Below, one piece after another: positions 1 to 32,455 of a DNA stretch of 32,455 bases (position 1 is its first letter; each line of letters starts with the position of its first letter). A model generated the notes under the pieces. It searched no databases and was not told the DNA's origin. It worked only from the letters and a program-made list of their open reading frames with translations. Origin of the DNA: Bdellovibrionales bacterium (lineage in GTDB: Bacteria > Bdellovibrionota > Bdellovibrionia > Bdellovibrionales > JAMPXM01); the NCBI GenBank assembly GCA_043739185.1, contig JAYUEN010000431.1, forward strand, positions 1 through 32,455. The letters run 5' to 3'. The translations under genes and the position numbers were made by a program.

Positions 1-85
1 GAAGCCTTTTGATTTCGACATATATTTAGAATCTATTCACGCTTTTATTGAAAAGGGAAATTGTCTTCCGGTATTTAAACACTAA
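1..85 (+). CDS. C-terminal fragment of a response-regulator receiver (REC) protein, 5'-truncated by the window edge
   Basis: Frame starting at nt 2 reads KPFDFDIYLESIHAFIEKGNCLPVFKH* (TAA 83-85). KPF is the conserved REC beta5-alpha5 motif. It lies directly upstream of a hybrid kinase and is too short for the ORF track. Confidence 0.6.
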   Translation, partial: KPFDFDIYLESIHAFIEKGNCLPVFKH

Positions 86-146
86 GAACGGTCAGAGGAT
101 GCAAACTTAGTCGATTTGCTTGCCTGCCCTGAATTGCGGAGTCGGC

Positions 147-3100
147 ATGGCAAAGAAAAAAAAAATCAAAAGACCAGAAGACATTAAGAAGCTTACGCTG
201 CCCAAAACCAATCACAAAAAAAATGATACCGGCAACAAATCCGCCAAAAGCCTAAAGGAGTTCCCGGCGAGCGAGCTTATTGGTTCTAGTTCCCGCTTTC
301 CAATAGTGGGGATTGGTGCTTCGGCTGGTGGCTTAGAAGCATTTACCGATTTACTTGAGGCTCTACCTAATGACACCGGCATGGCATTTGTTTTTGTTCA
401 GCATTTGGACCCCTCACACCATAGCATGGCACCAGAAATTTTATCTCGTTCTACTAAAATGCGCGTTCAAGAAGTTACAGATGGTATGCAGGTTCTACCC
501 AACAACATCTATTTAAATCCGCCCAATTACTGCATTTCGATTTTGAATGGTCATTTAAGTCTTCTTCCACGCATTGAGACTCGAGGCCAGCATTTGACTA
601 TTGATTTTTTCTTTTTATCGCTCGCGAAGGACCAACAAAGACGGGCTATTGGAGTGGTTCTTTCTGGAGCTGCATCTGACGGAACTCTCGGACTTAAAAA
701 TATTAAGGACGAAGGCGGCCTGGCAATTGCGCAAGACCCAAAATCTGCAAAATACGACGGTATGCCTAAAGGCGCTATCGCGTCGGGAGTTATAGATTTG
801 ATATTGCCCCCAAAAGGCATCGCGCAGGAGCTTACAAGAATATCAAAGCATCCGTATATCGCCGCCGCTTGTGAGACCAACGGCTTAGGACAAATTGAAC
901 GCAGCGGTTTGAAGGACGAGCATGAAGATCAGGACAAACTTAATAGCAATTTAGACGTTGATCTTCGAAAAATTTTTGCTTTATTACACTCACAAACAAA
1001 GATTGATTTTTCAAATTATAAGCACACCACTCTAAAAAGACGTATTCAAAGACGGATGATGGTGCGAAAAATAGAGGGCCTAAACTCCTACGCCAAATTT
1101 CTTCAAAGTAATCCGACCGAAATAAAAGCCCTTTATGCCGATATGCTCATCAATGTAACTGAATTTTTTCGCGATCCTGATTCATTTGAGACATTGAAGA
1201 ATTCAGTATTCCCACAGCTCATGAAGAAAAGGACTCCCGACGCTGCTATCCGTATTTGGGTGCCGGGCTGTTCGACTGGAGAAGAAGTTTATTCTATTGC
1301 TATTTTACTTCTCGAGTTTATGGGAGATGCTGGTGCTAAGATTCCAATTCAGATTTTTGCGACAGACATAAGTGAGTCGACTATAAAAAAAGCAAGAGCC
1401 GGAGTCTATGCCGAGGGTATTGAGCGGAGTGTAAGCAAAGAGCGGCTCAACAGATTCTTTGACAAGGTAAATGGCGGATTTAAAATTAATAAATCGATTC
1501 GAGATTTATGTCTGTTTTCAAAACACGATGTCACAAGTGATCCGCCATTTTCAAAACTCGATCTTGTCTCCTGTCGGAATGTCTTGATCTACTTTGCTGC
1601 CATTTTACAAAAACGTGTCATTCCGGTCTTTCACTACTCGCTCAATCACGACGGCTTTCTTTTTATGGGCAGAGCTGATAGCCCAGGCGGCACCTCAAAG
1701 CTATTTACGCTCGTAGATAAAACACACAAAATTTATTCTAAGATTAACGTTCCAACACCTATGACTTTTCGATTCCCTTTGAGTGCATACGTGCCTGAGG
1801 CACAGGACGTAACTACGAAGATCCCCGAACCAGCCAGGAGTAAAAGTGATTTTCAGAGCGATGCGGATCGAATCTCTCTCCTCAAATACGCCCCGCCCTC
1901 GGTGGTCGTAAACTCTGATCTTGAAATTTTGCAGTTTCGAGGCAGAACGGTTCCTTTTCTTGAACCGGCATCGGGACTTCCGAGTTCGAACATACTCAAG
2001 ATGGCAAGAGAGGAACTGCTGCATGGTCTTCGCATGACGATCCAGGCGGCTACTAAACAAAACTTGCAAGCCAGGCAAGAGGGTTTAGCATTTGTTGTGG
2101 ATGGCAAGCAAAGATACGTCAATATCGAAGTGATCCCGGCCAATCCTTTGGCGCCACCAAATCAGCGTAATTTAGTGATTTTTTTTGAAGAAGTGGCGTC
2201 AATTACTCCAATACCCAAGCAGAAGGCTACTCTTGGCGGTAAAGTTGGGGCCAAAAAAGGGCAAGAAAAAAATATTCGTATTCAGCAAAGTCAGCGGATC
2301 AACCAGCTTGAGCAAGATGCCCTAGCCAATAAGCAGTATCAGCAGTCAATGGCTGAAGAATTTGAAGCCGCAAAAGAGGAACTCACTGCTGCCAATGAGG
2401 AATTACAAAGCACCAACGAAGAACTTCAAAGCACCAATGAAGAAATGGAAACCGCGAAGGAGGAAATTCAATCCTCCAACGAAGAGTTGACGACGGTAAA
2501 TGATGAACTACAAAATCGCAATTCAGAGCTGGCACTTTTCAGCAGCGACTTAAATAATGTGCTGAGTAGTGTAGAAATTCCTATCTTAATCGTTGGCAGT
2601 GATCATCGCATCAGAAGATTTACCCCCAAAGCCGAAAAATTCTTCAAATTAATACCTAGCGATGTCGGTCGCCCCATTGGTGATATTAAAACTGAGTTTG
2701 ATCTGGATCTAGATTTGGATGACTTGATACGCGAGGTTGGTGAATCGCTGCGTCCTCAAGAAAAGGAAATCAAAGATCGACAAGATCGCTGGGTCAGGCT
2801 TCAAATTCGACCCTATAAAACAGTCGACAATCGAATTGACGGTGCTGTGATCACATTGATGGATATTGAAGCGCTCAAAAAGCAAGTCGCAGCTTCTAAA
2901 AGGGCCCAAGATTATCATACTTCTGTGGCGGAGACAGTACAGCTCCCTCTTGCAGTCCTAGATGTTCAGTTGCGCCTCCTATCCGCGAACAGTGCTTTCT
3001 GGGAACATTTTAAGCTTTCTCAACAATTCACCGGAAGAGATTGCTTTGCAATTCTAGAAATGCAAAGCGACTCCGCGCACTTGATGCGCAAGCTACTTAC

Positions 3101-5066
3101 TGAAAATTTGAGTTTAAATGAGAAAGTACGGTCCGTTGAGATGGATTGCGAGTTCACTCAACTTGGGCATCGCAGCTTGCTCATATCGGCGAGTTTTATC
3201 GATTGGATAGGAGAGATGGCTCAGGGGGCTCAGGGGGCTCAGGGGGCTCAAGAGCCCAAAGCAATTCTCCTTAGTCTTGAAGACATCACTGAACGCAAAC
3301 GAATAGAAATAGATTTGGCGCGCGAAACGAAAATCGTTCGGCTATTTGAATCCGTAACGACGGCAGCAAATGAGGCAACAAGCTTTGATAGTGCCTTACA
3401 AATATTTCTTGATCGAATATGTGTCCATACTAAATGGCCAGTGGGATATGCATTTTTACTCTCAAATGATGGCTCCAGTGAGTTCCGTCCATCCAATGTG
3501 TGGCACCTTGATGATCCTAAAAGGTTTGCCCGCTTTAGAGAGGCGACTGAACTTTCAAAGCTCGCTCCGGGAGATGGCTTAGCAGGGAAAGTCTCAGCTA
3601 ATGGCAAACCAGTTTTTATTTTAGACCTTATACATGATTCGGCATTTACGAAAGCAAAACTCATCGAAGAAACAGGTGTTAAATCTGCAATTGGTTTTCC
3701 TGTTTTTGTTGGCGGATCGATCGTTGCGGTCCTTAAGTTTCTTTCTGAAGAAACAAAAGAACCGGACCAGAGATTGATCCAAGTCATCACTCACGTTATT
3801 CCGCAACTTAGCCGAGTTTTTGAGCGCAAGCTATCAGAAGAGGCGACGATGCAACGCTTTGGAAAAGAGCAAGAGGCCCGCGCCAACGCTGAAGACGCAA
3901 ATCAGACGAAAGACGAATTCTTAGCGACCCTTTCTCATGAGCTTCGAACGCCACTCACCTCAATTCTTTCGTGGTCGCAACTTATTCAAAAACAGAAATT
4001 CGATCCCGAGAAAATCAAACATGGAATTAAGATGATCGAGCAGTCTGCTAAAATGCAGGGCCAGCTAATTGATGATCTACTAGACGTCAATCGGATTCGA
4101 TCCGGCAAACTTTCCTTTAACTTCGCTCAAATCAATCCAAGCGAACCTGTAATTTTATCCGTAGAAGCTGTTCGTGCCTTGGCTGAAAGTAGGCAGATAC
4201 TTATTGAATTAGAAATAAAAATCCAATCAGAAAAGATCTGGGCTGACGGTGAACGTCTTCAACAAGTTGTATGGAACTTACTAACTAACGCCATAAAATT
4301 TTCCTCCAAGGGCGGCGTAATACGTGTTTTGGTTGAACCTGTCGAGGAAAGTGGCGAACAATTTGCAATGATCAGAGTTAGCGATCAGGGAAAAGGAATT
4401 AGTCCTGAGTTCGTGCCAAGGCTTTTTGAGCGTTTTAGTCAGGCCGATAGTAGCTCTATAAGAGTTCACGGAGGCCTTGGTTTGGGACTAGCGATTGTTC
4501 GTGATTTGATTCAGTTACAAGGCGGCAAGGTTCGAGCTGAGAGTGACGGAGTAGGCAAAGGCGCGACATTTACCGTTTTACTTCCTAGCAAGTCAGGACC
4601 CGTTGGTATGACGAGTGAAACAAACTCGCCGTTAGAAACAAAACCGCGAGAAAATGTTGAATCGGCTGACCTCGCTGGTTTATGCGTAATGGTTGTTGAT
4701 GATAATCAAAGTACGCTTGAGGTCTTGCGTGAAGCTCTACATTCTTTCGGCGCAAAAACATTTCCTTGCCATACGGTGCTCGAGGCACTTGAAGCTTTTG
4801 AAAGTTTCAAACCGGACGTTTTGATAAGCGATATTTCTATGCCGGTAGAAGATGGCTATAGCCTGATTCGAAAGATTAGAAGTCTTGGATCTGAACGCCG
4901 TGGCGATATTCCTTCCTTAGCGCTTACGGCGTATGCAACAAAAGGAGATATCAAAAGAGCTTTGTCTGCTGGCTTTGATTCACACATGGCGAAGCCGTTT
5001 GATACATTCCGTCTTGGTCGAGCGGTTGCTGAACTTGCTAAAAATACCAAAGTTAAACCTTCATGA
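147..5066 (+). CDS. CheB-CheR-PAS-coiled coil-PAS-GAF-HisKA-HATPase-REC hybrid sensor kinase (CheB/CheR fusion type)
   Basis: CheB motifs GIGASAGG, VQHLDP and SGAASDG. CheR motifs INVTEFFRD, WVPGCSTGEE and SCRNVLIY. EELQSTNEE heptads. H-box FLATLSHELRTPL, N-box NLLTNAIKF, G boxes DQGKGI and GGLGLGL. C-terminal REC (VVDD, ISDISMP, KPF). Start moved from TTG 120 to ATG 147, which follows GGAG. Confidence 0.93.
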   Translation: MAKKKKIKRPEDIKKLTLPKTNHKKNDTGNKSAKSLKEFPASELIGSSSRFPIVGIGASAGGLEAFTDLLEALPNDTGMAFVFVQHLDPSHHSMAPEILSRSTKMRVQEVTDGMQVLPNNIYLNPPNYCISILNGHLSLLPRIETRGQHLTIDFFFLSLAKDQQRRAIGVVLSGAASDGTLGLKNIKDEGGLAIAQDPKSAKYDGMPKGAIASGVIDLILPPKGIAQELTRISKHPYIAAACETNGLGQIERSGLKDEHEDQDKLNSNLDVDLRKIFALLHSQTKIDFSNYKHTTLKRRIQRRMMVRKIEGLNSYAKFLQSNPTEIKALYADMLINVTEFFRDPDSFETLKNSVFPQLMKKRTPDAAIRIWVPGCSTGEEVYSIAILLLEFMGDAGAKIPIQIFATDISESTIKKARAGVYAEGIERSVSKERLNRFFDKVNGGFKINKSIRDLCLFSKHDVTSDPPFSKLDLVSCRNVLIYFAAILQKRVIPVFHYSLNHDGFLFMGRADSPGGTSKLFTLVDKTHKIYSKINVPTPMTFRFPLSAYVPEAQDVTTKIPEPARSKSDFQSDADRISLLKYAPPSVVVNSDLEILQFRGRTVPFLEPASGLPSSNILKMAREELLHGLRMTIQAATKQNLQARQEGLAFVVDGKQRYVNIEVIPANPLAPPNQRNLVIFFEEVASITPIPKQKATLGGKVGAKKGQEKNIRIQQSQRINQLEQDALANKQYQQSMAEEFEAAKEELTAANEELQSTNEELQSTNEEMETAKEEIQSSNEELTTVNDELQNRNSELALFSSDLNNVLSSVEIPILIVGSDHRIRRFTPKAEKFFKLIPSDVGRPIGDIKTEFDLDLDLDDLIREVGESLRPQEKEIKDRQDRWVRLQIRPYKTVDNRIDGAVITLMDIEALKKQVAASKRAQDYHTSVAETVQLPLAVLDVQLRLLSANSAFWEHFKLSQQFTGRDCFAILEMQSDSAHLMRKLLTENLSLNEKVRSVEMDCEFTQLGHRSLLISASFIDWIGEMAQGAQGAQGAQEPKAILLSLEDITERKRIEIDLARETKIVRLFESVTTAANEATSFDSALQIFLDRICVHTKWPVGYAFLLSNDGSSEFRPSNVWHLDDPKRFARFREATELSKLAPGDGLAGKVSANGKPVFILDLIHDSAFTKAKLIEETGVKSAIGFPVFVGGSIVAVLKFLSEETKEPDQRLIQVITHVIPQLSRVFERKLSEEATMQRFGKEQEARANAEDANQTKDEFLATLSHELRTPLTSILSWSQLIQKQKFDPEKIKHGIKMIEQSAKMQGQLIDDLLDVNRIRSGKLSFNFAQINPSEPVILSVEAVRALAESRQILIELEIKIQSEKIWADGERLQQVVWNLLTNAIKFSSKGGVIRVLVEPVEESGEQFAMIRVSDQGKGISPEFVPRLFERFSQADSSSIRVHGGLGLGLAIVRDLIQLQGGKVRAESDGVGKGATFTVLLPSKSGPVGMTSETNSPLETKPRENVESADLAGLCVMVVDDNQSTLEVLREALHSFGAKTFPCHTVLEALEAFESFKPDVLISDISMPVEDGYSLIRKIRSLGSERRGDIPSLALTAYATKGDIKRALSAGFDSHMAKPFDTFRLGRAVAELAKNTKVKPS
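3218..3250 (+). repeat. In-frame 9-bp tandem repeat (GGCTCAGGG)x3.7 encoding AQGAQGAQGAQ
   Basis: Perfect nucleotide-level repeat seen directly in the sequence. Confidence 0.95.
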
Positions 5067-5647
5067 AAAAAAGCTTCCCCAACTTCGTTGTCGGCATCGG
5101 TGGTTCAGCGGGAGGTCTCAAGGCCTATACGGCCCTACTTGAGGCCCTGCCATCCAATACTGGCATGGCCTTTGTCTTCATCGCTCACCTTAGCCCTACC
5201 GGCAAAAATCTGTTACCTCACATCTTATCACAGTCAACGAATATGCCGGCGATTCAAGCCACGGACGGTATGCCTATTCAGGCAAATCATATCTACGTGA
5301 TTGCCCCGAATACAAATCTTCTTATGAAAAACCTCAACTTTGAAGTTGTCTCACCCCGCACCCTGAGCAATGGGCGGCACAAACAGGTCGATTTTTTTCT
5401 AATTTCTCTGGCCGAGACAATGGGAGCACGAGCAATTGGAATTATTCTTTCTGGCGGCGATGGCGATGGCACCGAAGGATGCAAATTTATTAAGGCCAGA
5501 GGAGGAAAAACCTTTGCACAAGATTTCTCCGCAGATGTTGAATCCATGCCTCTTCATGCTCAAGCTTCAGGTTGTGTTGATCTCGTTTTATCACCGGACA
5601 AAATTTCAGTTGAACTTACCAAGATTAGTAGCCACTTGGCTCATTGA
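5063..5647 (+). CDS. cheB: Stand-alone CheB-type protein-glutamate methylesterase (no REC domain)
   Basis: Ser-His-Asp triad motifs GGSAGG, AHLSP and SGGDGDG, plus SMP. ATGA overlap with the kinase stop codon. Confidence 0.9.
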   Translation: MKKSFPNFVVGIGGSAGGLKAYTALLEALPSNTGMAFVFIAHLSPTGKNLLPHILSQSTNMPAIQATDGMPIQANHIYVIAPNTNLLMKNLNFEVVSPRTLSNGRHKQVDFFLISLAETMGARAIGIILSGGDGDGTEGCKFIKARGGKTFAQDFSADVESMPLHAQASGCVDLVLSPDKISVELTKISSHLAH

Positions 5648-5734: not shown

Positions 5735-6379
5735 TCAGTTTAAAAATGCTTCAAAACCTAAATCTCTTTGACGCTTTTCAAAGTATGGAGCTTCGTATTT
5801 GTAATTTGCAGATACAAAATCCCAATTCAGAACACGCCAAAATTTGTCTAAATATTTAGGCTTGTCATTTTGATAATCTAGGTAGTAAGCATGCTCCCAG
5901 AGGTCGCATACCATGATTGGCGACATTTCGTACACCAAGGGATTGTCTGCATTGGCCAAAGCCTCGATTGCAAGTTCTCCATCTGAGTTTTGCACGAGCC
6001 AGACCCAACCTGATCCAAAAAGCTCTACTGCACTTTTACTAAATTTAGCTTTGAAGTCGTCTAGAGAGCCAAACTTTTCAACAATTGCTGCACGCAGTTC
6101 ACGCGAAGCTTGAGTCTTATCAGGGCTTAAGCATTTCCAGAAGAAAGCGTGATTAAAGGCTTGAGCCGCATTGTGAAAAATAGCTTCGTTCTTTTGAAAG
6201 GTCCTAATGAGCACCTCTTTTAAATCTAGTTTTTCAAATTCAGTTCCTTTGACGAGCTCATTTAAAGTCGAAACATATTTCTTATAATGCTTCAGATAAT
6301 GAGTTTCGAGTGCTTTTTTAGAAATATCTGGCTCTAAGCTATCGGTATCAAACGCTAACTTTTCAATTTCAAATGCCAT
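5735..6379 (-). CDS. sodB: Superoxide dismutase, Fe-type
   Basis: HYLKH..YV, AAQAFNHAFFW (the AAQ signature indicates Fe-SOD), FGSGWVW and DLWEHAYY. Start reassigned to ATG 6379 after GGAGAA; the longer ORF runs through the repeat element. Confidence 0.92.
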   Translation of the reverse strand: MAFEIEKLAFDTDSLEPDISKKALETHYLKHYKKYVSTLNELVKGTEFEKLDLKEVLIRTFQKNEAIFHNAAQAFNHAFFWKCLSPDKTQASRELRAAIVEKFGSLDDFKAKFSKSAVELFGSGWVWLVQNSDGELAIEALANADNPLVYEMSPIMVCDLWEHAYYLDYQNDKPKYLDKFWRVLNWDFVSANYKYEAPYFEKRQRDLGFEAFLN

Positions 6380-6416: not shown

Positions 6417-6539
6417 TAGATGAGTCCAAAATTAATGCGACCGAGGCGTTCGAGGAGGAGGCGCGGAGACCTACTACTTGTAGGCCGCACAAGCCGACAG
6501 CTAAAGCACTGAAGGTCCCATTAATTTTGGACTCATCTA
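6417..6539. mobile_element. 123-bp MITE/REP-like element with 26-bp terminal inverted repeats
   Basis: TAGATGAGTCCAAAATTAATGCGACC ... GGTCCCATTAATTTTGGACTCATCTA match at 25/26, with the outer 21 bp perfect. TA at both ends, GC-rich core, internal CCTAC-N5-GTAGG hairpin, no transposase. Confidence 0.75.
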
Positions 6540-6542: not shown

Positions 6543-7208
6543 TTATAGGTTGAGGGCTAGACCCAACGCCGCACTTAAATCTGAACGATACAAGCTAACC
6601 GCATTCATTACGCTATCAATTGATCGACTGTAGTCGACCTCTATCAATAAATCAGTTGAAGTACTGAGATTGAATTTAAATCCTCCCCCTACCAAAAAAT
6701 CTGTTTCCCAAGACTTTGCACCTATTTGTGTTGTGGGTGTTGAATACATTGTATTGTCTGAAATTAAAGTTGAACCCATAACTCCTGCTTTAATGAAAAC
6801 CGAAGTCGATTCTTGGCCATTAAAATAGTATTTTAAGTCAAGAGGGACACTGATATAATTTGCCGTAAAGTCATTTTCACTCAAGCCATTATTATAAGTC
6901 GTGCCGAACTGTCGGTATAGGGCCCCAGTCTCAAGAACCATTCCGCCGTTTCCTAAGAGATCAAAGAGAATCCCGGCGCTGTAGCCATTGGGTCTTGAGT
7001 AACGCGAACTATGATCACCTTCATAACCTGCGTTAGCAAACGACCCCTCAAATATGATGCGCCTGAAAAATCGCTCTTCGGAACGATTTGGATTGGATAC
7101 ACTTGTCTGACTACTAGCACCCGGTTCATCTGCAAAGAGCTTGGGCGCAAGGCAGATTGAGAAAACGATACTTAAAAAAATTGGGCCGAACTTAGAATAA
7201 TTTTTCAT
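6543..7208 (-). CDS. Outer-membrane beta-barrel protein (OMP_b-brl_2/PorT-like)
   Basis: Signal peptide, alternating amphipathic strands, YISVPLDLKYYF motif, C-terminal strand ALGLALNL. Confidence 0.7.
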   Translation of the reverse strand: MKNYSKFGPIFLSIVFSICLAPKLFADEPGASSQTSVSNPNRSEERFFRRIIFEGSFANAGYEGDHSSRYSRPNGYSAGILFDLLGNGGMVLETGALYRQFGTTYNNGLSENDFTANYISVPLDLKYYFNGQESTSVFIKAGVMGSTLISDNTMYSTPTTQIGAKSWETDFLVGGGFKFNLSTSTDLLIEVDYSRSIDSVMNAVSLYRSDLSAALGLALNL

Positions 7209-7477
7209 AGTTTGCCCAATCTTTTTCCTGATTTGTATGAGCCAGAAAACAATCCGACGAGCATCAGAAAAACCACGGCACCAATCACCGACATTACAAA
7301 AGAGCCCCAGAATCCATAGGCGGTAACGCCCAAAATACTAAATACAAAGCCACCGACAAAAGCGCCAATGATACCGACTATTAAATCAGTAACAACGCCC
7401 ATCCCGTGACCTTCAACTAGTATTCCTGAGAGCCAACCAGTCAGTATCCCAATCATCAAAAACGCTAGAATGTTCAT
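7205..7477 (-). CDS. GlsB/YeaQ/YmgE family (transglycosylase-associated) stress membrane protein
   Basis: Gly-rich three-TM protein with IVGIIGAFVGG and SVIGAVVFL. RBS AGGAG. Confidence 0.9.
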   Translation of the reverse strand: MNILAFLMIGILTGWLSGILVEGHGMGVVTDLIVGIIGAFVGGFVFSILGVTAYGFWGSFVMSVIGAVVFLMLVGLFSGSYKSGKRLGKL

Positions 7478-7534: not shown

Positions 7535-7550
7535 TGCAACAATTCAGCCG
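7535..7550 (-). promoter_or_regulatory. Predicted sigma-54 promoter CGGCTGAATTGTTGCA for ymgE-like/OMP/sodB
   Basis: GG-N10-GC with TTGCA, 58 nt before ATG 7477. Confidence 0.7.
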
Positions 7551-7587
7551 TTAACAGCTCAAGACTCAACGCCTTTGAGCTAAATCC

Positions 7588-7839
7588 TTAAGGCGATTTG
7601 TCTCTACTTGGGGCATGTATAGCCCGACCAGCTGTTCTCATGCGAAATCGAGAGTGACTCTTTTGTGGCGGAGGAGCCGCTTCGGTAGTCTGATTGTCCC
7701 CGGCAACTACCACTCCCTGCGTAGAAAAAGAAACGCCGTCTAGGTCATAATGATCATCGACATCTCGTGAAGAGATTTTTTTTGAACTTAGATGATTGCG
7801 CCAACTCATAAACATTTTTTTGAAATCAACTCTGTTCAT
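7588..7839 (-). CDS. Small hypothetical hydrophilic protein
   Basis: ORF directly downstream of dps on the same strand. GAGGA RBS before ATG 7839. Confidence 0.55.
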   Translation of the reverse strand: MNRVDFKKMFMSWRNHLSSKKISSRDVDDHYDLDGVSFSTQGVVVAGDNQTTEAAPPPQKSHSRFRMRTAGRAIHAPSRDKSP

Positions 7840-7890: not shown

Positions 7891-8373
7891 CTACTTTTTT
7901 GCTTGCAGATGGGCTTCGACAAACCACAAATATTTGTCTAAGCCCCTTGAGATTTCAGTTAAGATATCAGCTGAATCAGCATCGCTCACTTCAATGCAAG
8001 ATTGAATAGCCTTACGAACTTGTGCACCTGCGCCACTCAAGGTATCAGAAAGATATTCAATATGGGCATGCCCATCGCTGATAACCACGGGATATTCCTT
8101 TAGACATGATTTCTTTGTAACAAACTGTGCGGTTCCTTCGGCAATTCCACCAAGCTGTACAACTCTTTCGGCAAGCAGGTCAGTATACTCACCAAAACTC
8201 TGGTAAATTTGATCGAAGAGTTCATGAAGGGCAATAAAATTAGGACCTTTGACATTCCAATGAGCTTGTTTTGAATTCAGAACTCCATCTAAACAAGTTG
8301 CCAAACAAGCGTTGAGAAGCTCGATAACTGGCACGCGACTCGCAACCGGAATACTATTTTTAGTTTGATACAT
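7891..8373 (-). CDS. dps: DNA protection during starvation protein Dps
   Basis: HWNVKGPNFIALHELFD, DLLAERVVQLGG and DKYLWF. RBS AAGGAG. Confidence 0.96.
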   Translation of the reverse strand: MYQTKNSIPVASRVPVIELLNACLATCLDGVLNSKQAHWNVKGPNFIALHELFDQIYQSFGEYTDLLAERVVQLGGIAEGTAQFVTKKSCLKEYPVVISDGHAHIEYLSDTLSGAGAQVRKAIQSCIEVSDADSADILTEISRGLDKYLWFVEAHLQAKK

Positions 8374-8681: not shown

Positions 8682-8697
8682 AGCAAGTATTTAGCCA
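8682..8697 (-). promoter_or_regulatory. Predicted sigma-54 promoter TGGCTAAATACTTGCT for the dps operon
   Basis: TGGC-N7-TTGCT, 53 nt before ATG 8629. Confidence 0.78.
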
Positions 8698-22689: not shown

Positions 22690-22702
22690 AAATGAGAGAA
22701 AA

Positions 22703-24445: not shown

Positions 24446-25015
24446 CTATTTTTTTCTAACGACAACTACTACAGCCATAGACTCAGCTCCATCCCGAGCA
24501 ATGGTATTGAAGTCTTCTCTTGCCATCGGTAGACTGGCATCCTTACTAAAAACCGATTTGATTTCTGCATCGTCAGTCCTAAAGGTCTTTGCCAACCAAT
24601 TTGAGGCATCCGCCATATTATAGGCCTTAATACTCGGTGAATTCATATAGGCTTTAAGAAATTCTTTGACCTTCTCGATCCTAGCGTTTGCCAAGTCCTG
24701 ATCTGATTTTGGCAAGCTCTTTCCGGTTCTGGGAAATGCCTTGTCGGACCAAACCGCCAATTCAATTTTATCAATATCATCAGCACCTACATTATTAACA
24801 ACCTCTTGAAGCTTGGTCTGCTCTCCAGCCCTCAATTGCGAGCTCCCAATTGCAAAAGCAACTACGACGCTGCGACCATAGTGGTGACTATCGACCTCAG
24901 CATCAGAATTTGCGGCACTCCTATTCATTGGTACATCATGCGCACAAGCGGCAGATAAGATACAAAATGAAAATGCCCAAAGACACAATGGTAACTTTTT
25001 ACTAATGTAATTCAC
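24446..25015 (-). CDS. Lipoprotein with a degenerate OmpA-C-like fold
   Basis: GTG start after AAGGAG, lipobox SAAC. FAIGSSQL...WSD...DLANARIEKVKEFL resembles an OmpA-C domain. Confidence 0.6.
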   Translation of the reverse strand: MNYISKKLPLCLWAFSFCILSAACAHDVPMNRSAANSDAEVDSHHYGRSVVVAFAIGSSQLRAGEQTKLQEVVNNVGADDIDKIELAVWSDKAFPRTGKSLPKSDQDLANARIEKVKEFLKAYMNSPSIKAYNMADASNWLAKTFRTDDAEIKSVFSKDASLPMAREDFNTIARDGAESMAVVVVVRKK

Positions 25016-25099
25016 AGTAATCTCCTTGTTTTTTAGTTTCATATTTAATTTCTATACCAGGAAAATTCCTGATATTTCATGAGAACGAAATTTCGGTCT

Positions 25100-25144: not shown

Positions 25145-25834
25145 TCAATGTGCATAGTTTGAAAGTGCTTCATTATATGGACGAAGCATTGCGGGCATAA
25201 GAATATAATCCGTATTGTGCTCCAACAGATCTGTAGCGCTTAGTTTCGATCCATAAACCATAATATTTGTCTTGGTATCAACGCTGATGATCGAGCCATC
25301 TAGGGTGAGACCAGCAAATAAACCACGGCTTCTTGAATAACTATAGATTTCGCTACTGAGAGTTAAATCAGTACTCGCCTGAGCTTCCCTGCCCACAGGC
25401 CCTGCGGCAATTGAAACATCACCACCGAGAGTAAATTTGCCCTTTGACATCTTTACTGCAGCTTCTGATTTGACAAAAACTAAAACCAAGTCAACGGACT
25501 CTACCCCAATCTGAAATCCCCAGCTACCGCCAGCGATTGTTATGAAAGAAGGTTGACTCCATCGCCCACTTACTCGACACGAAACCAATCCCTGCCCATA
25601 TTGCCCGCCAAAAATGAATCCGGCCTTAATTACATTAGGAATGGTGGCAATACATGTCGCTTTATTCATTAGGTTGTGCGGAATTCCTCCATCTGAAATT
25701 TCAGAAATTTCCCGAAGCACACTTGCCGAGACATTTACTTTGTCTACTAGATCTGGCATGGTCTCTGCAGTCGCAAATGAAGAAATTGTCATCATGACCG
25801 CGCCGGTCAAAAGTGTTTTAAAAGTATTTCTCAT
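25145..25834 (-). CDS. Ysc84/SYLF lipid-binding domain exported protein
   Basis: Signal peptide. KAGFIFGGQYGQG, WSQPSF, GFQIG, AAGPVGR and YSRSRGLFAG. Confidence 0.92.
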   Translation of the reverse strand: MRNTFKTLLTGAVMMTISSFATAETMPDLVDKVNVSASVLREISEISDGGIPHNLMNKATCIATIPNVIKAGFIFGGQYGQGLVSCRVSGRWSQPSFITIAGGSWGFQIGVESVDLVLVFVKSEAAVKMSKGKFTLGGDVSIAAGPVGREAQASTDLTLSSEIYSYSRSRGLFAGLTLDGSIISVDTKTNIMVYGSKLSATDLLEHNTDYILMPAMLRPYNEALSNYAH

Positions 25835-25874: not shown

Positions 25875-26075
25875 TTAATTGCGAGTTTCTGATCGGTTTT
25901 GTTCTTTGGGCTTACGCTCCTGAGACTGAGACATATCTTTCTCATTAGTTTTTTGTTTGTTGGGATCATCTGCTTTTTTTGCATTAGGCGAAAATGAAGG
26001 CGCGACCTTCTTGCCCCCGTTTTCCTGATGATTAGCAGACTTCTTCTCTTCTTTTTGAAACTTTTTGTTATCCAT
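25875..26075 (-). CDS. Small highly hydrophilic (hydrophilin-like) protein
   Basis: AAAGGAG RBS. 66 aa, rich in K/E/N/Q/S and almost devoid of hydrophobic residues. Confidence 0.75.
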   Translation of the reverse strand: MDNKKFQKEEKKSANHQENGGKKVAPSFSPNAKKADDPNKQKTNEKDMSQSQERKPKEQNRSETRN

Positions 26076-26129: not shown

Positions 26130-26145
26130 AGCGAAATCCTTGCCA
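26130..26145 (-). promoter_or_regulatory. Predicted sigma-54 promoter TGGCAAGGATTTCGCT
   Basis: TGGCA, GG-N10-GC, 55 nt before ATG 26075. Confidence 0.72.
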
Positions 26146-26286
26146 AGTTTTGGCGACGAGGAAATCAACCAAACTAGCTACTTACAGAGTTGCGCAATTT
26201 TTTGAAACGACTTTTTGACCCAAACATGATCTGCCAGTTCATTTCCTGCCCATCGCTCAAAGGGCTTCAACCAAAATATTATTTTT

Positions 26287-26302
26287 TGGTCAAGACTTTG
26301 CA
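26287..26302 (+). promoter_or_regulatory. Predicted sigma-54 promoter TGGTCAAGACTTTGCA (divergent partner of the 26130 site)
   Basis: TGG-N10-GC with TTGCA, 49 nt before ATG 26351. Confidence 0.68.
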
Positions 26303-26350: not shown

Positions 26351-27142
26351 ATGAATTCAAAATCTTCACTACATTCATTTTTCAAACTTAGGAAATGGCA
26401 AATTCTGCTTTCGACAGTTTTTTTTTCAATATCACAATTGCAGGCGAGCGAAAGTCTTTCAAGAGATGGCCTCAATATCTACCGCCACAACGAAAATTAT
26501 TTTATTACAGGCAAGGAAGAAACCAAGATTCAATTGAGCTTTAAAATGGAGCTAATTGCTGATGCAGGCTTTTACGTTGCCTATACTCAATTGATGTTTT
26601 GGGATCTTGGCATTGGAACGGCACATTTTTCAGATGTAAACTACAATCCTGAATTCTTTTATCGCCTAAGGCTGAGCAATTCGATTTTAAAGGAAATTGA
26701 CTTCTGCCCGCTAGACCACAAATCAGACGGTCAAACCGCCGAAAACGCCCGCAGCTGGAACCGTACTTATATAAATTTAAGAAGTGACTATGAGTTTTTT
26801 CATTTGAATTTTCGAACGGAAACGAAAATGTATTACTTCTATGAATACGACAATACGAATCCTGAAATCTACCGTAAGCTTGGGCTTATCGAATTTGGGT
26901 TTACGATTGAAAATCTTTTGTTAGGTCGTTTTAGTCAAGATGAACTCAATATTAAAATCGTGCCAGGAGGGGTTTTTAGTATGTCTGAAAATGAAGGTCA
27001 TCAGGAATTGAACTTTAAATTTCGTTTGCAAATACCCCGACTCAATCCATCAATTTATTTTCAAATATACAATGGAACCGACGAAAAGCTGATAAAATAC
27101 AACGAAACTGCAACCAGTTATCGAATCGGCTTAGCTCTTTAA
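26351..27142 (+). CDS. pldA: Outer-membrane phospholipase A (OMPLA)
   Basis: KIQLSFK, YTQLMFW, NYNPEFFY, HKSDG...RSWNR and C-terminal strand IGLAL. Confidence 0.85.
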   Translation: MNSKSSLHSFFKLRKWQILLSTVFFSISQLQASESLSRDGLNIYRHNENYFITGKEETKIQLSFKMELIADAGFYVAYTQLMFWDLGIGTAHFSDVNYNPEFFYRLRLSNSILKEIDFCPLDHKSDGQTAENARSWNRTYINLRSDYEFFHLNFRTETKMYYFYEYDNTNPEIYRKLGLIEFGFTIENLLLGRFSQDELNIKIVPGGVFSMSENEGHQELNFKFRLQIPRLNPSIYFQIYNGTDEKLIKYNETATSYRIGLAL

Positions 27143-27152: not shown

Positions 27153-28598
27153 CTAAATTCCCAATTCTTCTAGTCTAGGTGAATTGATTTCTTTTTCTTT
27201 TCGATAAAGTGTTTTTCGGTCAATTCCTAATAGCTTTGCCGCCAAGTCTTTTTTACCGGCAGTTCTCTTAAGAATATACTCAATATATTTCATCTCGAGC
27301 TGTTGAATAGTAATACAGGAGCTAAAAATATCATTTGGAAGCTCATGAACTAGTTCTTTCTTGTCTGACGCTACTTCAATGTCACAGACTTCAATCTGAT
27401 TTGTATTACAAAATACCATTGCTCGTTCAATGGTATTTTCAAGCTCTCTGATATTGCCCGGCCAGTCTTGCAAGCTCAAATGCTCAATTGCATGCGCACT
27501 CAAGCTCTTTACCAAGGGATTCAAACTAGAATATTTCTCTACAAAATGTTCTGCCAAAAGAGAAATATCATTTTTGCGGCTCTTTAAGGTTGGAACCTCA
27601 ATATAAACCACATTGATTCGATAATAAAGATCTTCTCGAAATCGTCCGGCCTTGCATTCTACTTTAAGGTCGCGGTGACTTGCCGCAATGATTCGCACAT
27701 CGCTTTGCTTTGTAATATTCTCGCCAACTAATTTATACTCTCGCTCTTGAATAAACCTCAAAAGTTTACCTTGTAGAGCCAAAGGCATATCACCAATTTC
27801 ATCTAAAAAAAGTGTGCCCCCCTCAGCGGTTTCAACCAGACCTTTTCGCCTTGAAATGGCCCCGGTGAATGCACCTTTCGCATGTCCAAAGAGCTCACTC
27901 TCAAGAAGATTTTCTGGAATTGCAGTACAATTGAGTGCAACAAAGGGTTTGCGCGCCCTAGGCCCACTCTTATGTATCGCCTGAGCAATGAGTTCTTTCC
28001 CGGTTCCGCTCTGGCCAAACAACAAAACATTGACTCGATTGCGGGCAACTTTCTTGATCATAGACAAGACACTTTGCATCTTCGGATCATTTCCGATCAA
28101 CGAAAGTGCATGAGATGAAAGCTTTGCGGTGTCCAATATCTCTAAGCCTTCGCGCTCTAGAATTCGATCCTTAAGCAGCCCCTGCATAATCGATTTGAGC
28201 TCTAAAATATTAAGAGGTTTTATAATGTAATGATCTGCACCTATGCGCATCGATTCAACCGCAGTTTCAATACTCGCAAACGCCGACATAATAATAATGA
28301 GTGTATCGCTTAACTTTCGTAGTTCTTTAGTGAATTCAATGCCACTCAGCCCAGGCATTATTAAGTCAGAAAGGATGATATCGTAACCGGAGGTACCTGT
28401 GTCCAAACAATTTTGTTTTATTTTATCTAATGCGTCTTTCGCAGTTAAAAAGTGATCGAGTAAATAATTTTCAGCAAGAAGTTTATACTTCAAAAACTCA
28501 AAAATTTCTAAACTATCGTCTATTACTAAGATCTTTGTTTTGGGTGTTTTAATTATTTCACCAGCCACACCCGTCGCACTGTTCGCATTGCTCTTCAA
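27153..28598 (-). CDS. Sigma-54-dependent NtrC-family response regulator (REC-AAA+-Fis HTH)
   Basis: REC (IDD, SDLIMP, KP), Walker [40 protein letters not shown] and [12 protein letters not shown]. Confidence 0.96.
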
Positions 28599-28973: not shown

Positions 28974-29246
28974 CTAATGATGAGCTCTGGTCGTAGTTTC
29001 ACTTTTTTGGTGATTAAAATAAAAATATGCGCCAGCAGCTATCACTGAAATACCCGCACTGACCATCGCAATTGTTCTCCAGTTTTCCCGAGAAAACTTT
29101 TTGATGGCTGGGAGCGCCTTGCTCACTTCTGCAACCAATTCTTGAGCCTTCTCACCACTGGTTTTACTTCCATTGAGGCTTGCTGTGTCCAGACCCTTTT
29201 TCCCACGGCTTGGTTCTTCTCTATAACGATATTCTGTTTTGTCCAT
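28974..29246 (-). CDS. Small C-terminally anchored membrane protein (ElaB/YqjD/DUF883-like architecture)
   Basis: Charged N-terminus, FSRENW, then a single C-terminal TM. AAAGG RBS. Confidence 0.6.
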   Translation of the reverse strand: MDKTEYRYREEPSRGKKGLDTASLNGSKTSGEKAQELVAEVSKALPAIKKFSRENWRTIAMVSAGISVIAAGAYFYFNHQKSETTTRAHH

Positions 29247-29302: not shown

Positions 29303-29581
29303 TTAATTTCCTATACTATGAGAGCTTTCAATCACGGAATCTGTTTGCCGAAGCACAATACTCAATGCGAAAGCAACAAGTGGAGGCGTCAGACCTCGCC
29401 AGTTCATCCTCAGATAATAGGTAAGATCTATTAATTCAGATAGACTGGTATCAACAATTTCACGCTCTTCGCTAATAAAATTCATAATTTTGTCTTGCAG
29501 GACTTTTGGATGTTTTAATATTCCCATCAGAACTTCATGAGAGTCAGAACCTTGAAGATCCTTTGAATTGTTCACAAGCAA
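29303..29581 (-). CDS. Small hypothetical protein with a hydrophobic C-terminal segment
   Basis: TTG start after AGAAAGGA. LRMNW followed by a hydrophobic stretch echoes the neighbouring gene. Confidence 0.55.
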   Translation of the reverse strand: MLVNNSKDLQGSDSHEVLMGILKHPKVLQDKIMNFISEEREIVDTSLSELIDLTYYLRMNWRGLTPPLVAFALSIVLRQTDSVIESSHSIGN

Positions 29582-29644: not shown

Positions 29645-29660
29645 TGCAAGCTTGCGGCCA
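29645..29660 (-). promoter_or_regulatory. Predicted sigma-54 promoter TGGCCGCAAGCTTGCA
   Basis: TGGC-N7-TTGCA, 64 nt before TTG 29581. Confidence 0.78.
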
Positions 29661-29985
29661 AATATTTGTCGCGAAGGCTAACACCCTAAGAATAGGCCCT
29701 AAAAATTATTTCTAATGATCTTGTTATCCATATTCCGACCGCTCAACGCATTTAAATGGGGCAGAAAGAAATTCCTAAATGAAACTTATCGCCCCATTTA
29801 TTTGAGTCCTGATTTTAAGAAAATGATTTCATTCCTGCGTTCAATTGAGAAATATTTTTGATCAAACTACTTTATAAGATTTATTTCGCTTTCAATTAAT
29901 TTTGTTTGGACGGGGCAAGTTTTCTCACTCCTGCATGAAATGGGGAATCATGACCGTCCGAACACTGATCTGGCAGCTTTGGGGA

Positions 29986-30001
29986 TGGCCGCAAATCTGC
30001 A
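29986..30001 (+). promoter_or_regulatory. Predicted sigma-54 promoter TGGCCGCAAATCTGCA for the ompA-DUF1328-csbD operon
   Basis: TGGC, GG-N10-GC, 45 nt before ATG 30046. Shares TGGCCGCAA with its divergent partner. Confidence 0.75.
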
Positions 30002-30045: not shown

Positions 30046-31473
30046 ATGATTCAAACCAGTTTCGCAAAATTGTTCACTCTGATGATTACCTTATTAGGAT
30101 TAGCAGCCTGTGGGCACTCGCCAACAATTCAAGAGTATTCAGTTGGCGCAAGCCCGAGTGAAGAAATTCAGAAGTTAGACGTCGCCATGACCAGTGCTTA
30201 TCGTGATCAGGTCGATATGCTCGCTCCAAACAGTTTTGAAAATGCCAAAGTCTCCCTCACCGAAGCCAAATCGCAATTAGATAAGCAAAAAGATCCAGCA
30301 AAGACATTGCATACAATTGCCACGGCAAATTCCTACTTGAAACAAGCAATCGCGGCTTCGCAAGTTGCACATGCAAATATTGAGGAAGTTATCTCTGCGA
30401 GAAAACAAGCCATTGCCGCTGGCGCAACCAAGCACTTTGACAAAGAATTTATGGCAACCGATCGACAATTGCGCGAAGTCACTTCCGACCTCGAAAAGAA
30501 TGAAGTTGCTTCCGCTGAAAAAAATCGTACCAGACTTCAAAATGAATATCTCAATCTCGAACTACTCTCGATTAAGACTGAAAGTTTACATAGTGCAGGT
30601 GAAACTATCGAACAGGCTAAAACTGAAGGAGCCAAATCACTCGCACCACGAAGCCTTGCAATTGCAGAAAAGAAGTATAGAGATACCGATGCATTTATAA
30701 CTGCAAATCGTCACGACGCACAAGTGAATGTCAGGTCAGAAGAAAGCAAAGCACTTGCCGTTCATCTTTTGAAAATTACCAGAGCCTCAAAGCTTGATAA
30801 AAAAACTTCGTCTGAAGAGTTGGCGCTGAGAAATGAGAATGACCAAAACTTAGCTTCAGAAAAGGACGCGGAGCTTCAAGCCAAAGAAACTGTATTGAAA
30901 AATCAAGGCGAAGAACTCACGACCAAGGATATGCAACTCGCAAAAAGCGAGAATGTGTTACAAAATAAGAATGCAGAACTGACTGGTGCCGCCTTAGCCT
31001 TGAATGAATCCAATAATAAAGCCGACGCCGAAAAAGAATTTAATCAGAAGTACGAAACTGCCCGTTCTGAATTTAGTGAACAAGAAGCCGAAGTATATAA
31101 ACAAGGCGATGCACTCGTAATTCGTCTAAAAGCCCTTGAGTTTCCCAACTCTAAAGCCAATTTAAAAGCTGCTAATTTCTCGCTATTGGCAAAAGTAGAG
31201 AAAGTAATTAAAAGCTTTGGCCCAAGTTCGGTCGTGATCGAAGGTCATACTGATTCTGTAGGAGGAAAAGTGGTAAACGAAAAGCTCTCCGTTCAGCGAG
31301 CACAGGCTATTCGAGAATATTTTATAGCCAATTCGGTAACTGACTCAGGTAAAATCAGCGCTATAGGTTATGACTATCAAAAGCCCATTGCGAGCAATAA
31401 GACACCTAGTGGCCGTGCTCAAAATCGTCGAGTCGATATTCGCATATTGCCTGATAAGACGACTTCACTTTAG
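30046..31473 (+). CDS. OmpA-family lipoprotein with a long helical/coiled-coil stalk
   Basis: Lipobox LAAC. IEGHTDSVG, NEKLSVQRA and GRAQNRRVDI peptidoglycan-binding motifs. Confidence 0.92.
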   Translation: MIQTSFAKLFTLMITLLGLAACGHSPTIQEYSVGASPSEEIQKLDVAMTSAYRDQVDMLAPNSFENAKVSLTEAKSQLDKQKDPAKTLHTIATANSYLKQAIAASQVAHANIEEVISARKQAIAAGATKHFDKEFMATDRQLREVTSDLEKNEVASAEKNRTRLQNEYLNLELLSIKTESLHSAGETIEQAKTEGAKSLAPRSLAIAEKKYRDTDAFITANRHDAQVNVRSEESKALAVHLLKITRASKLDKKTSSEELALRNENDQNLASEKDAELQAKETVLKNQGEELTTKDMQLAKSENVLQNKNAELTGAALALNESNNKADAEKEFNQKYETARSEFSEQEAEVYKQGDALVIRLKALEFPNSKANLKAANFSLLAKVEKVIKSFGPSSVVIEGHTDSVGGKVVNEKLSVQRAQAIREYFIANSVTDSGKISAIGYDYQKPIASNKTPSGRAQNRRVDIRILPDKTTSL

Positions 31474-31534: not shown

Positions 31535-31972
31535 ATGTTACGCGCAGCTATTGGATTTTTTATAATTGGACTTGTGGCTTTTGCATTAGGAGCTGGAGGT
31601 GTTGGGGGCCTGTCTATTGAAATAGGTCGAACTCTTCTCTTTGTGTTTATCGCTTTCGCAGTTTTGAGTTTCTTGGTCTCACTCTTTACGGGAAAAAAGC
31701 CACAAATAATTTGGATTCCTATTTTTCTCTTTGGCCTAACCTTCGCGCCCGGCACATCGAATGCCAACGCTGAAGATTCACCGAAAACTCAATTTCAAAA
31801 TGATATCGGCGACGCAAAAACAGATACAAAAGTTCACGCGCGAAAGCTGAAACGTTATGTCAGAAATAAAACGGGCAAGCAAAGTAGGGTCAAGGATTCA
31901 AAGGATTTGATTTACGATGCAAGCGATAAAACACAAAATTCGATTGAAAAAGTTGAACGCAAAGCTAAATAG
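31535..31972 (+). CDS. DUF1328 (UPF0391) membrane protein fused to a signal-peptide-like segment and a Lys/Asp-rich tail
   Basis: The first ~55 aa (MLRAAIGFFIIGLVAFALG..G..IGRTLLFVF) match DUF1328. AGGAGG RBS. Confidence 0.75.
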   Translation: MLRAAIGFFIIGLVAFALGAGGVGGLSIEIGRTLLFVFIAFAVLSFLVSLFTGKKPQIIWIPIFLFGLTFAPGTSNANAEDSPKTQFQNDIGDAKTDTKVHARKLKRYVRNKTGKQSRVKDSKDLIYDASDKTQNSIEKVERKAK

Positions 31973-32004
31973 ATTTTAACAACGATCAATAAGGAGAAAG
32001 AATT

Positions 32005-32259
32005 ATGACAATCAATGAAAATACCACAAATGGTAAATGGCTTGAAATTAAAGGCAATATTCAAAAGGCCTGGGGAAATCTCACCGACAACGAATTAGAG
32101 CAATCCAAGGGCGATATCAAAGCAATAGGCGGCTTAATTCAGCAACGATACGGAGAGGTTCAAGAAAGCTACGGCAAAAAACTTTCAGCGATTTTTCAAG
32201 ACTTCAAAGTAGAGAAAGATAAAAAGCTTGAGTCTATTAAATCTTCTCTTAAGTCTTAG
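32005..32259 (+). CDS. csbD: CsbD/YjbJ family general stress protein
   Basis: GKWLEIKGNIQKAWGNLTDNEL...G.IQQRYG. AAGGAG RBS. Confidence 0.93.
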   Translation: MTINENTTNGKWLEIKGNIQKAWGNLTDNELEQSKGDIKAIGGLIQQRYGEVQESYGKKLSAIFQDFKVEKDKKLESIKSSLKS

Positions 32260-32291
32260 AAACTGGGCCCTTAGACTGTAAAGGCTTAAAA

Positions 32292-32307
32292 TGGCCTGGG
32301 CTTTGCT
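32292..32307 (+). promoter_or_regulatory. Possible sigma-54 promoter TGGCCTGGGCTTTGCT pointing out of the window
   Basis: TGGC-N7-TTGCT. The target is not visible and the site overlaps the terminator. Confidence 0.45.
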
Positions 32308-32345
32308 TTTTGCCTTTTGGCATGAAGCGAGCTTGTTTTTGTTTT
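32299..32345 (+). terminator. Intrinsic terminator after csbD
   Basis: Imperfect stem centred on TGCC-TTTT-GGCA, followed by TTGTTTTTGTTTT. Confidence 0.55.
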
Positions 32346-32455
32346 AAATCCACCACCGAAAAATTCGTAAAGCGAATGAATCTCAATTCATTCGGAAGTT
32401 TTTTTCGTAAACACGACAAAGCCCAAGTGAAACGCTACCGCTGCCCGATTTGTAA

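Follow-up and report, generated by a model that had tools for sequence, protein, structure and literature searches.

In the literature no regulatory answer was found to how Bdellovibrio-like predators endure a lack of prey and environmental stress when RpoS, SigB and EcfG are missing, a question raised by a 32,455-nucleotide contig of a Bdellovibrionales bacterium (GenBank assembly GCA_043739185.1, contig JAYUEN010000431.1). This stretch, here called the window, is the entire contig C431 of a 4.85-Mb assembly (540 contigs, 97.65% complete), and carries genes of stress-type families, among them dps, sodB, csbD and ymgE, together with predicted sigma-54 (-24/-12) promoters, a sigma-54 activator and a CheB/CheR hybrid kinase. 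A sequence-only reading had described it as a self-contained general stress island, driven through sigma-54 by its own activator and kinase. The sigma-54 wiring of general-stress-type genes was upheld, since the sites are kept in the genus, the order and other families of the phylum and share an upstream motif, while the island was given up. With a probability of about 0.7, the window is taken to be a dense, rearranged piece of a Bdellovibrionota-wide sigma-54 regulon that is likely the general stress response of these bacteria. The case is built on motifs, their conservation, gene linkage and trees.

Sigma factors of the genome

Sigma-54 itself is encoded by a full-length rpoN frame of 486 codons on contig C116. 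The 3' end of another rpoN, incomplete and lying at the edge of its contig (C354:5-85), represents contamination, estimated at 3.7%, or a second copy. The sigma-70 family consists of eight proteins, namely RpoD, an RpoH-like factor, FliA and five extracytoplasmic function (ECF) factors, the last passing the generic superfamily cut-off only; the cut-offs for RpoS, SigB and SigBFG are reached by none of the sigma factors of this genome. NepR (PF18557), the defining factor of the EcfG type, gave no match in this 97.65% complete genome, PhyR not having been searched for, and four matches to SpoIIE/RsbU-type phosphatases were found. The check for rpoS in relatives, which the sequence-only reading had asked for, agreed: the RpoS model TIGR02394 exceeded its cut-off in 0 of 121 genomes of the order, the matches listed sitting in RpoD-sized frames, and the sigma-factor list of strain HD100 is likewise without RpoS in the accessible part of its source (PMC3464611).

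Predicted sigma-54 promoters in the window

The pattern YGGCA-N6-TTGC, which has the -24/-12 spacing, occurs 55 times in upstream regions genome-wide, compared with 3-15 times at other spacings. With a promoter matrix trained off-contig and a strong site defined as one of at least 10 bits, such sites were found in 189 of about 2930 upstream regions (6.5%) as against 1.1% of shuffles. When the window was divided by gene spacing into 12 effector units, strong sites were found to lead eight of them (binomial p=1.2e-7), two more scored 6.8-7.2 bits, and two had a weak GG-N10-GC alone. Site density of the window contig ranks first of 78 contigs of at least 15 kb, with seven of 20 upstream regions carrying a site.

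On the minus strand, strong sites lie at 7535..7552 (first G at 7549; 10.2 bits, 57 nt before ymgE), 8682..8699 (first G at 8696; 14.0 bits, 15.9 in the same-genus genome G003), 21803..21820 (first G at 21817; 13.8 bits, 13.2 in G003, 270 nt before the nearest called gene) and 29645..29662 (first G at 29659; 14.1 bits). Those on the plus strand lie at 10274..10291 (first G at 10277; 18.3 bits), 12424..12441 (first G at 12427; 14.1 bits), 29984..30001 (first G at 29987; 10.8 bits, for the OmpA-DUF1328-csbD unit) and 32290..32307 (first G at 32293; 17.8 bits, for a gene past the contig end). The two intermediate sites are found at 26130..26147 (-; first G at 26144; 7.2 bits) and, before phospholipase A1, at 26285..26302 (+; first G at 26288; 6.8 bits). 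Weak sites are the GG-N10-GC at 8873..8890 (+), with 1.0 bit, and the 5.1-bit site that alone precedes the genes at 22030..24399. The earlier statement that nearly every effector operon starts with a -24/-12 site holds for the effector operons; no strong site of its own precedes sodB, FMN reductase, the activator or the kinase, and sodB is tied to the regulon only through possible read-through across a repeat element.

Conservation within the genus

Comparison was made with three genomes of the same genus (G001 to G003, G000 being that of the window) and, for the csbD and kinase counts, with an order sample of 251 genomes. In G001-G003 the window genes are scattered over many contigs and their order is changed, so that the synteny check of the sequence-only reading gives no fixed island. 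Despite this reshuffling the sites are retained before the orthologues, and the companion check, on the presence of the motif upstream of orthologues, came out in favour of the wiring in the genus, in the order and in other families of the phylum. The dps units of all three relatives are sigma-54-led (16.4-19.7 bits), the site of the presumed glucan synthase scores 15.0 bits in G003 and 14.4 in G002, that of the hydrophilic protein-SYLF unit reaches 16.0 bits at the orthologous position in G001, and that of OmpA 10.6 bits in G003. A weak site stands 47-48 nt upstream of the second outer-membrane protein gene in all four genus genomes. No counterpart of the phospholipase A1 site was found at the orthologues in G002 and G003. 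In G003 (L052:4819-5229), a deletion fuses remnants of an outer-membrane protein gene and of sodB into one 136-aa frame, suggesting decay of the cluster in that genome.

A shared upstream motif

De novo palindromic searches were carried out on two sets of promoters. Among 32 promoters of other genera the motif Gtg.aaaattt.caC was recovered, and among 27 of this genus GGG..aa.tt..CCC, with palindrome log-likelihoods of 103-121 against 24-43 in shuffles. A spaced-dyad enrichment test, tried as another route, gave a diffuse signal only, where the palindromic expectation-maximization search succeeded. The motif from other genera separates the nine window promoters (median 7.8) from 180 other sigma-54 promoters of this genome (4.4; p=5e-4), and the genus motif trained without the window separates them more weakly (p=0.015). 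Furthermore, the order motif transfers to 28 promoters outside the order, with 7.95 against 4.5 for shuffles (p=4e-9).

Predicted upstream activator sequences (UAS) are often tandem and, judged by eye, about 21-23 bp apart. In the window they were placed at 7609..7627 for the ymgE promoter, at 8761..8801 as a tandem pair with a spacing of about 21 bp, flanked by two divergent promoters, at 10155..10173, at 12308..12326, and at 29910..29929 for the OmpA-DUF1328-csbD unit. The same tandem pair as at 8761..8801 is found at three promoters of G003, and a near-perfect upstream palindrome lies on contig C498.

A module across the phylum

The csbD gene was found in 152 of the 251 order genomes. Around 92 csbD genes from 86 genomes, the recurrent neighbours are DUF1328, outer-membrane barrels, a small secreted family, DUF883/ElaB, a sigma-54 activator and Hpt, and further OmpA-like lipoproteins, BON, single receivers, a REC-HisKA-HATPase-REC kinase, dps, phospholipase A1 and a conserved membrane protein without Pfam match, which we take to be GSP17M-like. 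The loci in several of these comparisons were hand-picked for taxonomic spread or top score and are not random. In csbD loci of the order, sites of at least 10 bits are present when the gene leads its unit in 16 of 27 cases for DUF1328, 19 of 56 for csbD and 7 of 11 for OmpA-like genes, as compared with 35 of 374 other genes, 0-3% of shuffles, none of 16 activators and none of 11 Hpt genes; the unit walk behind the csbD and DUF1328 counts missed at least one site seen otherwise.

In a quick tree, the activators that accompany csbD in 20 other genomes fall together in a single clade, and so do 22 phylum-wide module activators in a tree of 37 rows (support 100/99). A member of this clade is present in the genome for 25 of 35 csbD units with a site and for 24 of 56 without (p=0.01). 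Among 150 of 207 csbD matches and 110 activator matches of at least 610 bits (a self-chosen threshold), 37 of the 72 order genomes in which both are listed have the clade activator within 6 kb of csbD. For DUF1328, the same distance limit was satisfied by the clade activator in 20 of 23 genomes from outside the order, but by just 2 of 29 lower-scoring sister activators. Twenty loci outside the order contain Hpt in 17, DUF1328 in 14 and csbD in 12, and all 14 of the 14 DUF1328 genes carry a sigma-54 site; phospholipase A1 adjoins the clade activator in other families too. When metagenomes were scanned with the alignment of activators, the matches were generic enhancer-binding proteins, one of 80 in the clade, and they serve as a control only: csbD or DUF1328 occurred in none of the 80 loci, 33 of which span at least 8 kb. 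Named cultured Bdellovibrio with a clade activator are Tiberius (AFY01791.1), NC01, HCB-162 and GT3, and in some complete genomes of the order the clade profile finds no match. Homologues of the module activator carry Bdellovibrionota names among database matches.

Two further observations concern DUF1328 and csbD. The copies with top Pfam scores (L020-L049, L151-L180) are often without a sigma-54 site and may reveal another stress regulator. At L162:50-1725 in genome G401, DUF1328 has a strong sigma-54 site and is convergent with the gene of an unrelated activator that has an AlgB-like C-terminus, hinting that the link between DUF1328 and sigma-54 arose more than once. In Pseudomonas, algB presumably stands beside a DUF1328 gene; a DUF1328 search of plasmids gave nothing.

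The activator

The window activator (27153..28598, -; REC-AAA+-HTH by Pfam) has the REC aspartate motif, Walker A and B, GAFTGA at residue 242, the R-finger motif and the HTH, which bears out the earlier description of a REC-AAA+ activator with intact GAFTGA inside the cluster. It lies next to phospholipase A1 and near OmpA-DUF1328-csbD, the usual slot of the module. Its recognition helix is IDRKTLYRK, and IDRKTLY is common to the module clade, the window activator and a paralogue on contig C94, compared with INRRTLY in a C9-type activator of the genome. The phylum-wide clade activator was not found in this genome by profile search, and a sister position of the window lineage to the clade is not rejected (p-AU, approximately unbiased test, 0.127).

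A 73% orthologue of the window activator is present in G003 only. In G001 and G002, which keep the promoters, the best match is a 56% paralogue of the C94 type, also present on C94 here, and the proposal that the window activator is the sole driver is not supported. It appears that a sister paralogue reading the same DNA code has taken over, and either or both copies could drive the window promoters. At C9:600-5500, the C9-type sister activator is flanked by genes for CBS-like domains and by four sigma-54 sites, one before itself, and probably runs a separate regulon.

The kinase and the proposed relay

The CheB/CheR hybrid kinase (147..5066, +; CheB-CheR-PAS-GAF-HisKA-HATPase-REC by Pfam/NCBIfam) has its catalytic motifs and no clear membrane helix; a 9-bp in-frame tandem repeat (GAQ) lies inside it at 3221-3253. 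It had been put forward as the probable input together with an upstream REC protein. The latter is probably a receiver, and what the window holds of it is a 27-codon 3' remnant cut by the contig edge (2..85, +), which begins KPF and, at 27 aa, has no Pfam match; an upstream gene matching the kinase/receiver profile is present at most of 20 homologous kinase loci.

Close homologues of the kinase were found in 35 of the 251 order genomes, and the search gave none for G001 and G003, both of which retain the promoters. Beside a clade activator it occurs in one other genome, G206, where a 54%-identical full-length kinase directly follows Hpt and the clade activator, 35 nt downstream of the latter; in G002 the OmpA orthologue has a CheB/CheR fragment 2.5 kb away. 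Among 20 further kinase loci none is beside a clade activator and five have module-type genes nearby, and the kinase appears in one of 136 other csbD- or activator-centred loci. Since it is patchy and rarely beside the clade activator, it is at most a possible accessory input rather than the conserved one that had been supposed. The recurring partner of the module is a REC-HisKA-HATPase-REC kinase with Hpt; the HK profile also matches plain receivers, so that HK counts are upper bounds. The best stand-alone Hpt of this genome lies on C94, beside the paralogous activator. There, a cluster conserved in the genus (C94:38500-45200, L013, L014) combines the paralogous activator, Hpt, a receiver, hybrid kinases and three sigma-54 sites, and is a strong candidate for the actual relay hub.

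Proposed mechanism

A dedicated activator, together with a phosphorelay, probably turns on the stress-type genes that stand behind conserved sigma-54 motifs with a shared upstream motif. In the proposed scheme, hybrid kinases, typically of the REC-HisKA-HATPase-REC kind, would pass phosphate to Hpt, and Hpt in turn to an activator of the REC-AAA+-HTH type whose helix reads IDRKTLY. This protein would bind to tandem UAS of the type G-k-k-s-AAAwTTT-s-m-m-C, spaced by about 21-23 bp and situated some 50-130 nt upstream from the -24 element, and so bound would open the sigma-54 promoters of stress-protection genes. Predicted members of the regulon, with a -24/-12 site and the palindromic motif, are csbD, DUF1328, ElaB-like genes, ymgE, BON, OmpA and other outer-membrane proteins, and some dps. 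In this genus a sister lineage with two copies, one in the window and one on C94 beside Hpt, likely replaces the phylum-wide activator. Transcription from the sites, binding of the UAS, the flow of phosphate and induction by stress are predictions of this scheme from gene content and motifs. We lean towards counting it as a fourth general stress or dormancy architecture, in which a multi-kinase Hpt relay would feed one sigma-54 master activator, with paralogue replacement at genus level and swappable sensors such as the CheB/CheR kinase.

Weighing of the explanations

Several results weigh against a phylum-wide sigma-54 stress regulon. The window activator and its relatives form a separate lineage of five proteins (100/100) outside the 22-member clade, nesting of it with module activators of its own family is rejected (p-AU 0.0003), its clade-profile score of 460 bits is lower than the 567 of the C9-type, and its G003 orthologue has INRKTLY, not IDRKTLY. 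The UAS is degenerate: with the order motif, three of nine window promoters stay below 6.6, and low scores are also seen for several effector promoters on other contigs. The OmpA orthologues of G001 and G002 have 4.6-5.5 bits only. A site precedes just 36 of 92 csbD units and 9 of the 30 best Pfam matches to DUF1328 in the phylum, and many copies are therefore under other control. Sigma-54 is heavily used genome-wide (189 regions, 22 strong enhancer-binding domains), largely for secreted and envelope genes. Related genomes are not independent, and the cross-genome p-values overstate the support. In HD100, none of 140 attack-phase start sites, inspected by eye, has a well-placed -24/-12 element, Bd2462 coming near (PMC3627812 Table S2), and the mapped promoter of its dps gene, Bd2620, is not sigma-54-like, HD100 not being established as a carrier of the clade activator (PMC3627812).

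Three other explanations were considered. That the regulon is real and its output is envelope remodelling or a life-cycle stage, such as a resting, bdellocyst-like or late growth phase, is unlikely. It would suit the fact that most targets are envelope proteins (outer-membrane proteins, OmpA lipoproteins, phospholipase A1, glucan synthase, SYLF), that sigma-54 promoters here mostly precede secreted proteins, and that sodB and FMN reductase have no site of their own. However, the core beside the activator is DUF1328, csbD and an ElaB-like gene, with BON, ymgE and dps recurring, a set controlled elsewhere by RpoS, SigB or EcfG, and no such sigma factor was found here. It is quite unlikely as well that the CheB/CheR kinase signals directly to the window activator as sole driver of the window genes in a self-contained island. 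The highest sigma-54 site density of the 78 contigs, the activator in its usual slot, the kinase of G206 close behind a clade activator, the fragment near the G002 OmpA orthologue and the module-type genes at five of 20 kinase loci would all fit an island, whereas its kinase was not found in G001 or G003, was beside the clade activator at none of the 20 further loci and was in one of the 136 others. Nor is there a compositional signal, and Hpt, the paralogous activator, ElaB, BON and further ymgE-type genes lie on other contigs, on which ground the claim of self-containment was dropped.

Effectors with sigma-54 sites outside the window include a true ElaB-type gene (C523), BON (C346), a second ymgE-type gene (C316), a GSP17M-like gene (C252) and others. 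A horizontally acquired island was likewise rejected: the window has a GC content of 0.415 against 0.418 and tetranucleotide rank 23 of 45, integrase or transposase families were found in none of 27 window proteins scanned, partners are on other contigs, and the flanks lie past the contig ends. Highly improbable is the explanation that the sites reflect mere heavy use of sigma-54 by several unrelated activators with no single regulon. The 22 enhancer-binding proteins, the sites before about 9% of other genes in the loci and the degenerate UAS would be expected from it, yet throughout the phylum a single activator clade shows linkage to one and the same set of effector genes, and one upstream motif transfers between genera and beyond the order. 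The reading as a piece of a phylum-wide sigma-54 stress regulon is preferred.

Relation to known stress systems

RpoS of Gammaproteobacteria, SigB of Bacillota and EcfG-NepR-PhyR of Alphaproteobacteria control effectors of like kinds (csbD/yjbJ, DUF1328/ytjA, elaB, ymgE, BON/osmY, dps); yjbJ, ytjA, elaB, ymgE and dps belong to those regulons, and osmY is RpoS-dependent. In contrast to these systems, the defining sigma or anti-sigma factor was not found here, and the output would go by way of sigma-54 and an AAA+ activator with upstream sites. The logic of hybrid kinase, Hpt and sigma-54 activator is that of LuxN/LuxQ-LuxU-LuxO in Vibrio. The window activator reaches 320 bits on the LuxO model, against a cut-off of 800. 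AlgB of Pseudomonas (KinB/BphP-AlgB) is an NtrC-type regulator with GAFTGA, according to the part of the source available (PMC6932827). Unlike the targets predicted here, the known outputs of LuxO and AlgB are quorum-sensing RNAs or alginate and biofilm genes.

In Sphingomonas, general stress is signalled through a relay from kinase to single-domain receiver to phosphotransferase to master regulator, as described in the accessible part of PMC5898713; the recurring kinase, REC, Hpt and activator genes here resemble it. Nla28 of Myxococcus xanthus is likewise a sigma-54 activator tied to general stress in print. It binds direct 8-bp repeats CT(C/G)CG(C/G)AG, and the terms csbD, dps and DUF are absent from the main text, whereas the motif here is palindromic with an AT-rich centre and its targets are classic stress-gene families. 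A regulome table (PMC4641369) gives DVU3305 of Desulfovibrio vulgaris, a sigma-54 response regulator, the label 'general stress response'; the targets of DVU3305 there are two local operons only (DVU3298-3305), with no sign, in the part of the paper available, of a csbD/DUF1328/ElaB module or an Hpt relay. In Borrelia, sigma-54 and an enhancer-binding protein head the adaptation programme of Rrp2-RpoN-RpoS (accessible text of PMC4014564); sigma-54 acts there via rpoS, whereas in the present case the sites belong directly to the effector genes and a search for rpoS found none.

The literature, subscription papers and some supplements not being covered, yielded no account of this regulon. A search for Bdellovibrio with sigma54 and general stress response returned no papers, and one for Bdellovibrio with CsbD an irrelevant match only. 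The main text of a 2025 cross-phylum sigma-54 survey, as far as available, is without Bdellovibrio, Dps or CsbD (PMC12316311). In HD100 a third of mapped attack-phase promoters are without assigned regulator in the accessible part of PMC3627812. A candidate master-regulator clade, its relay partners, its promoters and a predicted binding motif are now named. If the reading is true, a sigma-54-based design joins the three textbook general stress systems, and this bears on the storage and persistence of predators for biocontrol.

Genes of the window

The clustering of stress-type genes noted earlier was confirmed by Pfam and NCBIfam for Dps, Fe-type superoxide dismutase, CsbD, YmgE, SYLF, FMN reductase and OmpA, and for DUF1328 through a profile of relatives. 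The ElaB-like label stands for layout only, and the hydrophilin label for composition only, on a very hydrophilic protein with 3% glycine. Rfam gave no match in the window.

Behind the hybrid kinase follows a stand-alone CheB methylesterase (5063..5647, +; Pfam). On the minus strand come the sodB-like Fe-type superoxide dismutase (5735..6379; Pfam/NCBIfam), an outer-membrane beta-barrel protein (6543..7208; Pfam) and the GlsB/YeaQ/YmgE family membrane protein ymgE (7205..7477; PF04226). The sodB gene is separated from the ymgE-outer-membrane protein unit by an interspersed repeat of about 105 bp (6431..6535), which has 18 BLAST hits in the genome including itself, copies 78-92% identical and no Rfam match. 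A small open reading frame (ORF) of unknown family (7588..7839, -) has homologues behind sigma-54 sites in G001 and G002. Dps (7891..8373, -; NF006975 over cut-off) belongs to a unit headed by a 75-aa protein of unknown family (8402..8629, -), a paralogue of which on C286 also has a sigma-54 site.

The plus strand continues with an outer-membrane beta-barrel protein (8939..9502; weak Pfam match), NADPH-dependent FMN reductase (9568..10134; Pfam), a protein of no family with a signal-peptide-like start (10340..10972) and a lipoprotein-like protein with a transglutaminase-elicitor-like domain (11077..12198; PF16683). The largest gene (12538..21354, +) encodes a 2938-aa protein with PF10091 and GH94 (Pfam), which we take to be a cyclic beta-1,2-glucan synthase of the NdvB/Cgs-like family. 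The stop of a 12-codon leader ORF (12503..12541, +) overlaps its TTG start. In G003 the leader, there of 14 codons, is kept with conserved residues and mainly synonymous changes; it may serve translational coupling or control of the glucan synthase. A frameshift at the start of the synthase was rejected, the overlapping leader being found in G003 too.

A small ORF of unknown family (21332..21532, -) is kept in G003, and the gap from the site at 21803..21820 to the called gene may hold a further small ORF (21633-21797) or a non-coding RNA. Three genes of unknown function occupy 22030..24399 (+), encoding a 219-aa lipoprotein-like protein, a 122-aa member of the small secreted family frequent in the module, and a 409-aa protein. 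They are followed on the minus strand by an OmpA-like lipoprotein of the module's conserved 198-aa family (24446..25042), a SYLF/Ysc84 protein (25145..25834; Pfam/NCBIfam) and a 66-aa protein, very hydrophilic by composition (25875..26075), with a grand average of hydropathy (GRAVY) of -2.3 but just 3% glycine. Outer-membrane phospholipase A1 (26351..27142, +; Pfam) adjoins the activator.

Beyond the activator, a small protein with a C-terminal hydrophobic segment (28974..29246, -) has an ElaB-like layout; its assignment to ElaB was not supported, with no Pfam match, no match to the DUF883-type profile of relatives and atlas values of at most 0.83. Next to it is a protein of unknown family (29303..29575, -) with homologues in sigma-54-led units of G001 and G002, and a CTCTGT tandem run lies at 29606-29640, upstream of the first gene of the 29659 promoter. 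The last unit, on the plus strand, comprises a 475-aa OmpA-domain lipoprotein (30046..31473; Pfam/NCBIfam), a DUF1328 protein fused to the small secreted family of the module (31535..31972) and CsbD (32005..32259; Pfam). The DUF1328 part scores 23.7 bits, below the Pfam cut-off, and 75 bits on the profile of relatives; the fusion recurs in G003 and G018, and in most other genomes the secreted protein is a separate downstream gene. The closest relative of this csbD in the genome collection is at locus L070, 82% identical, the single locus returned by a CsbD search of genome contigs. On C523, a 52-aa membrane protein (22745-22903), which we take to resemble DUF3309, follows the ElaB-type gene in its sigma-54-led unit.

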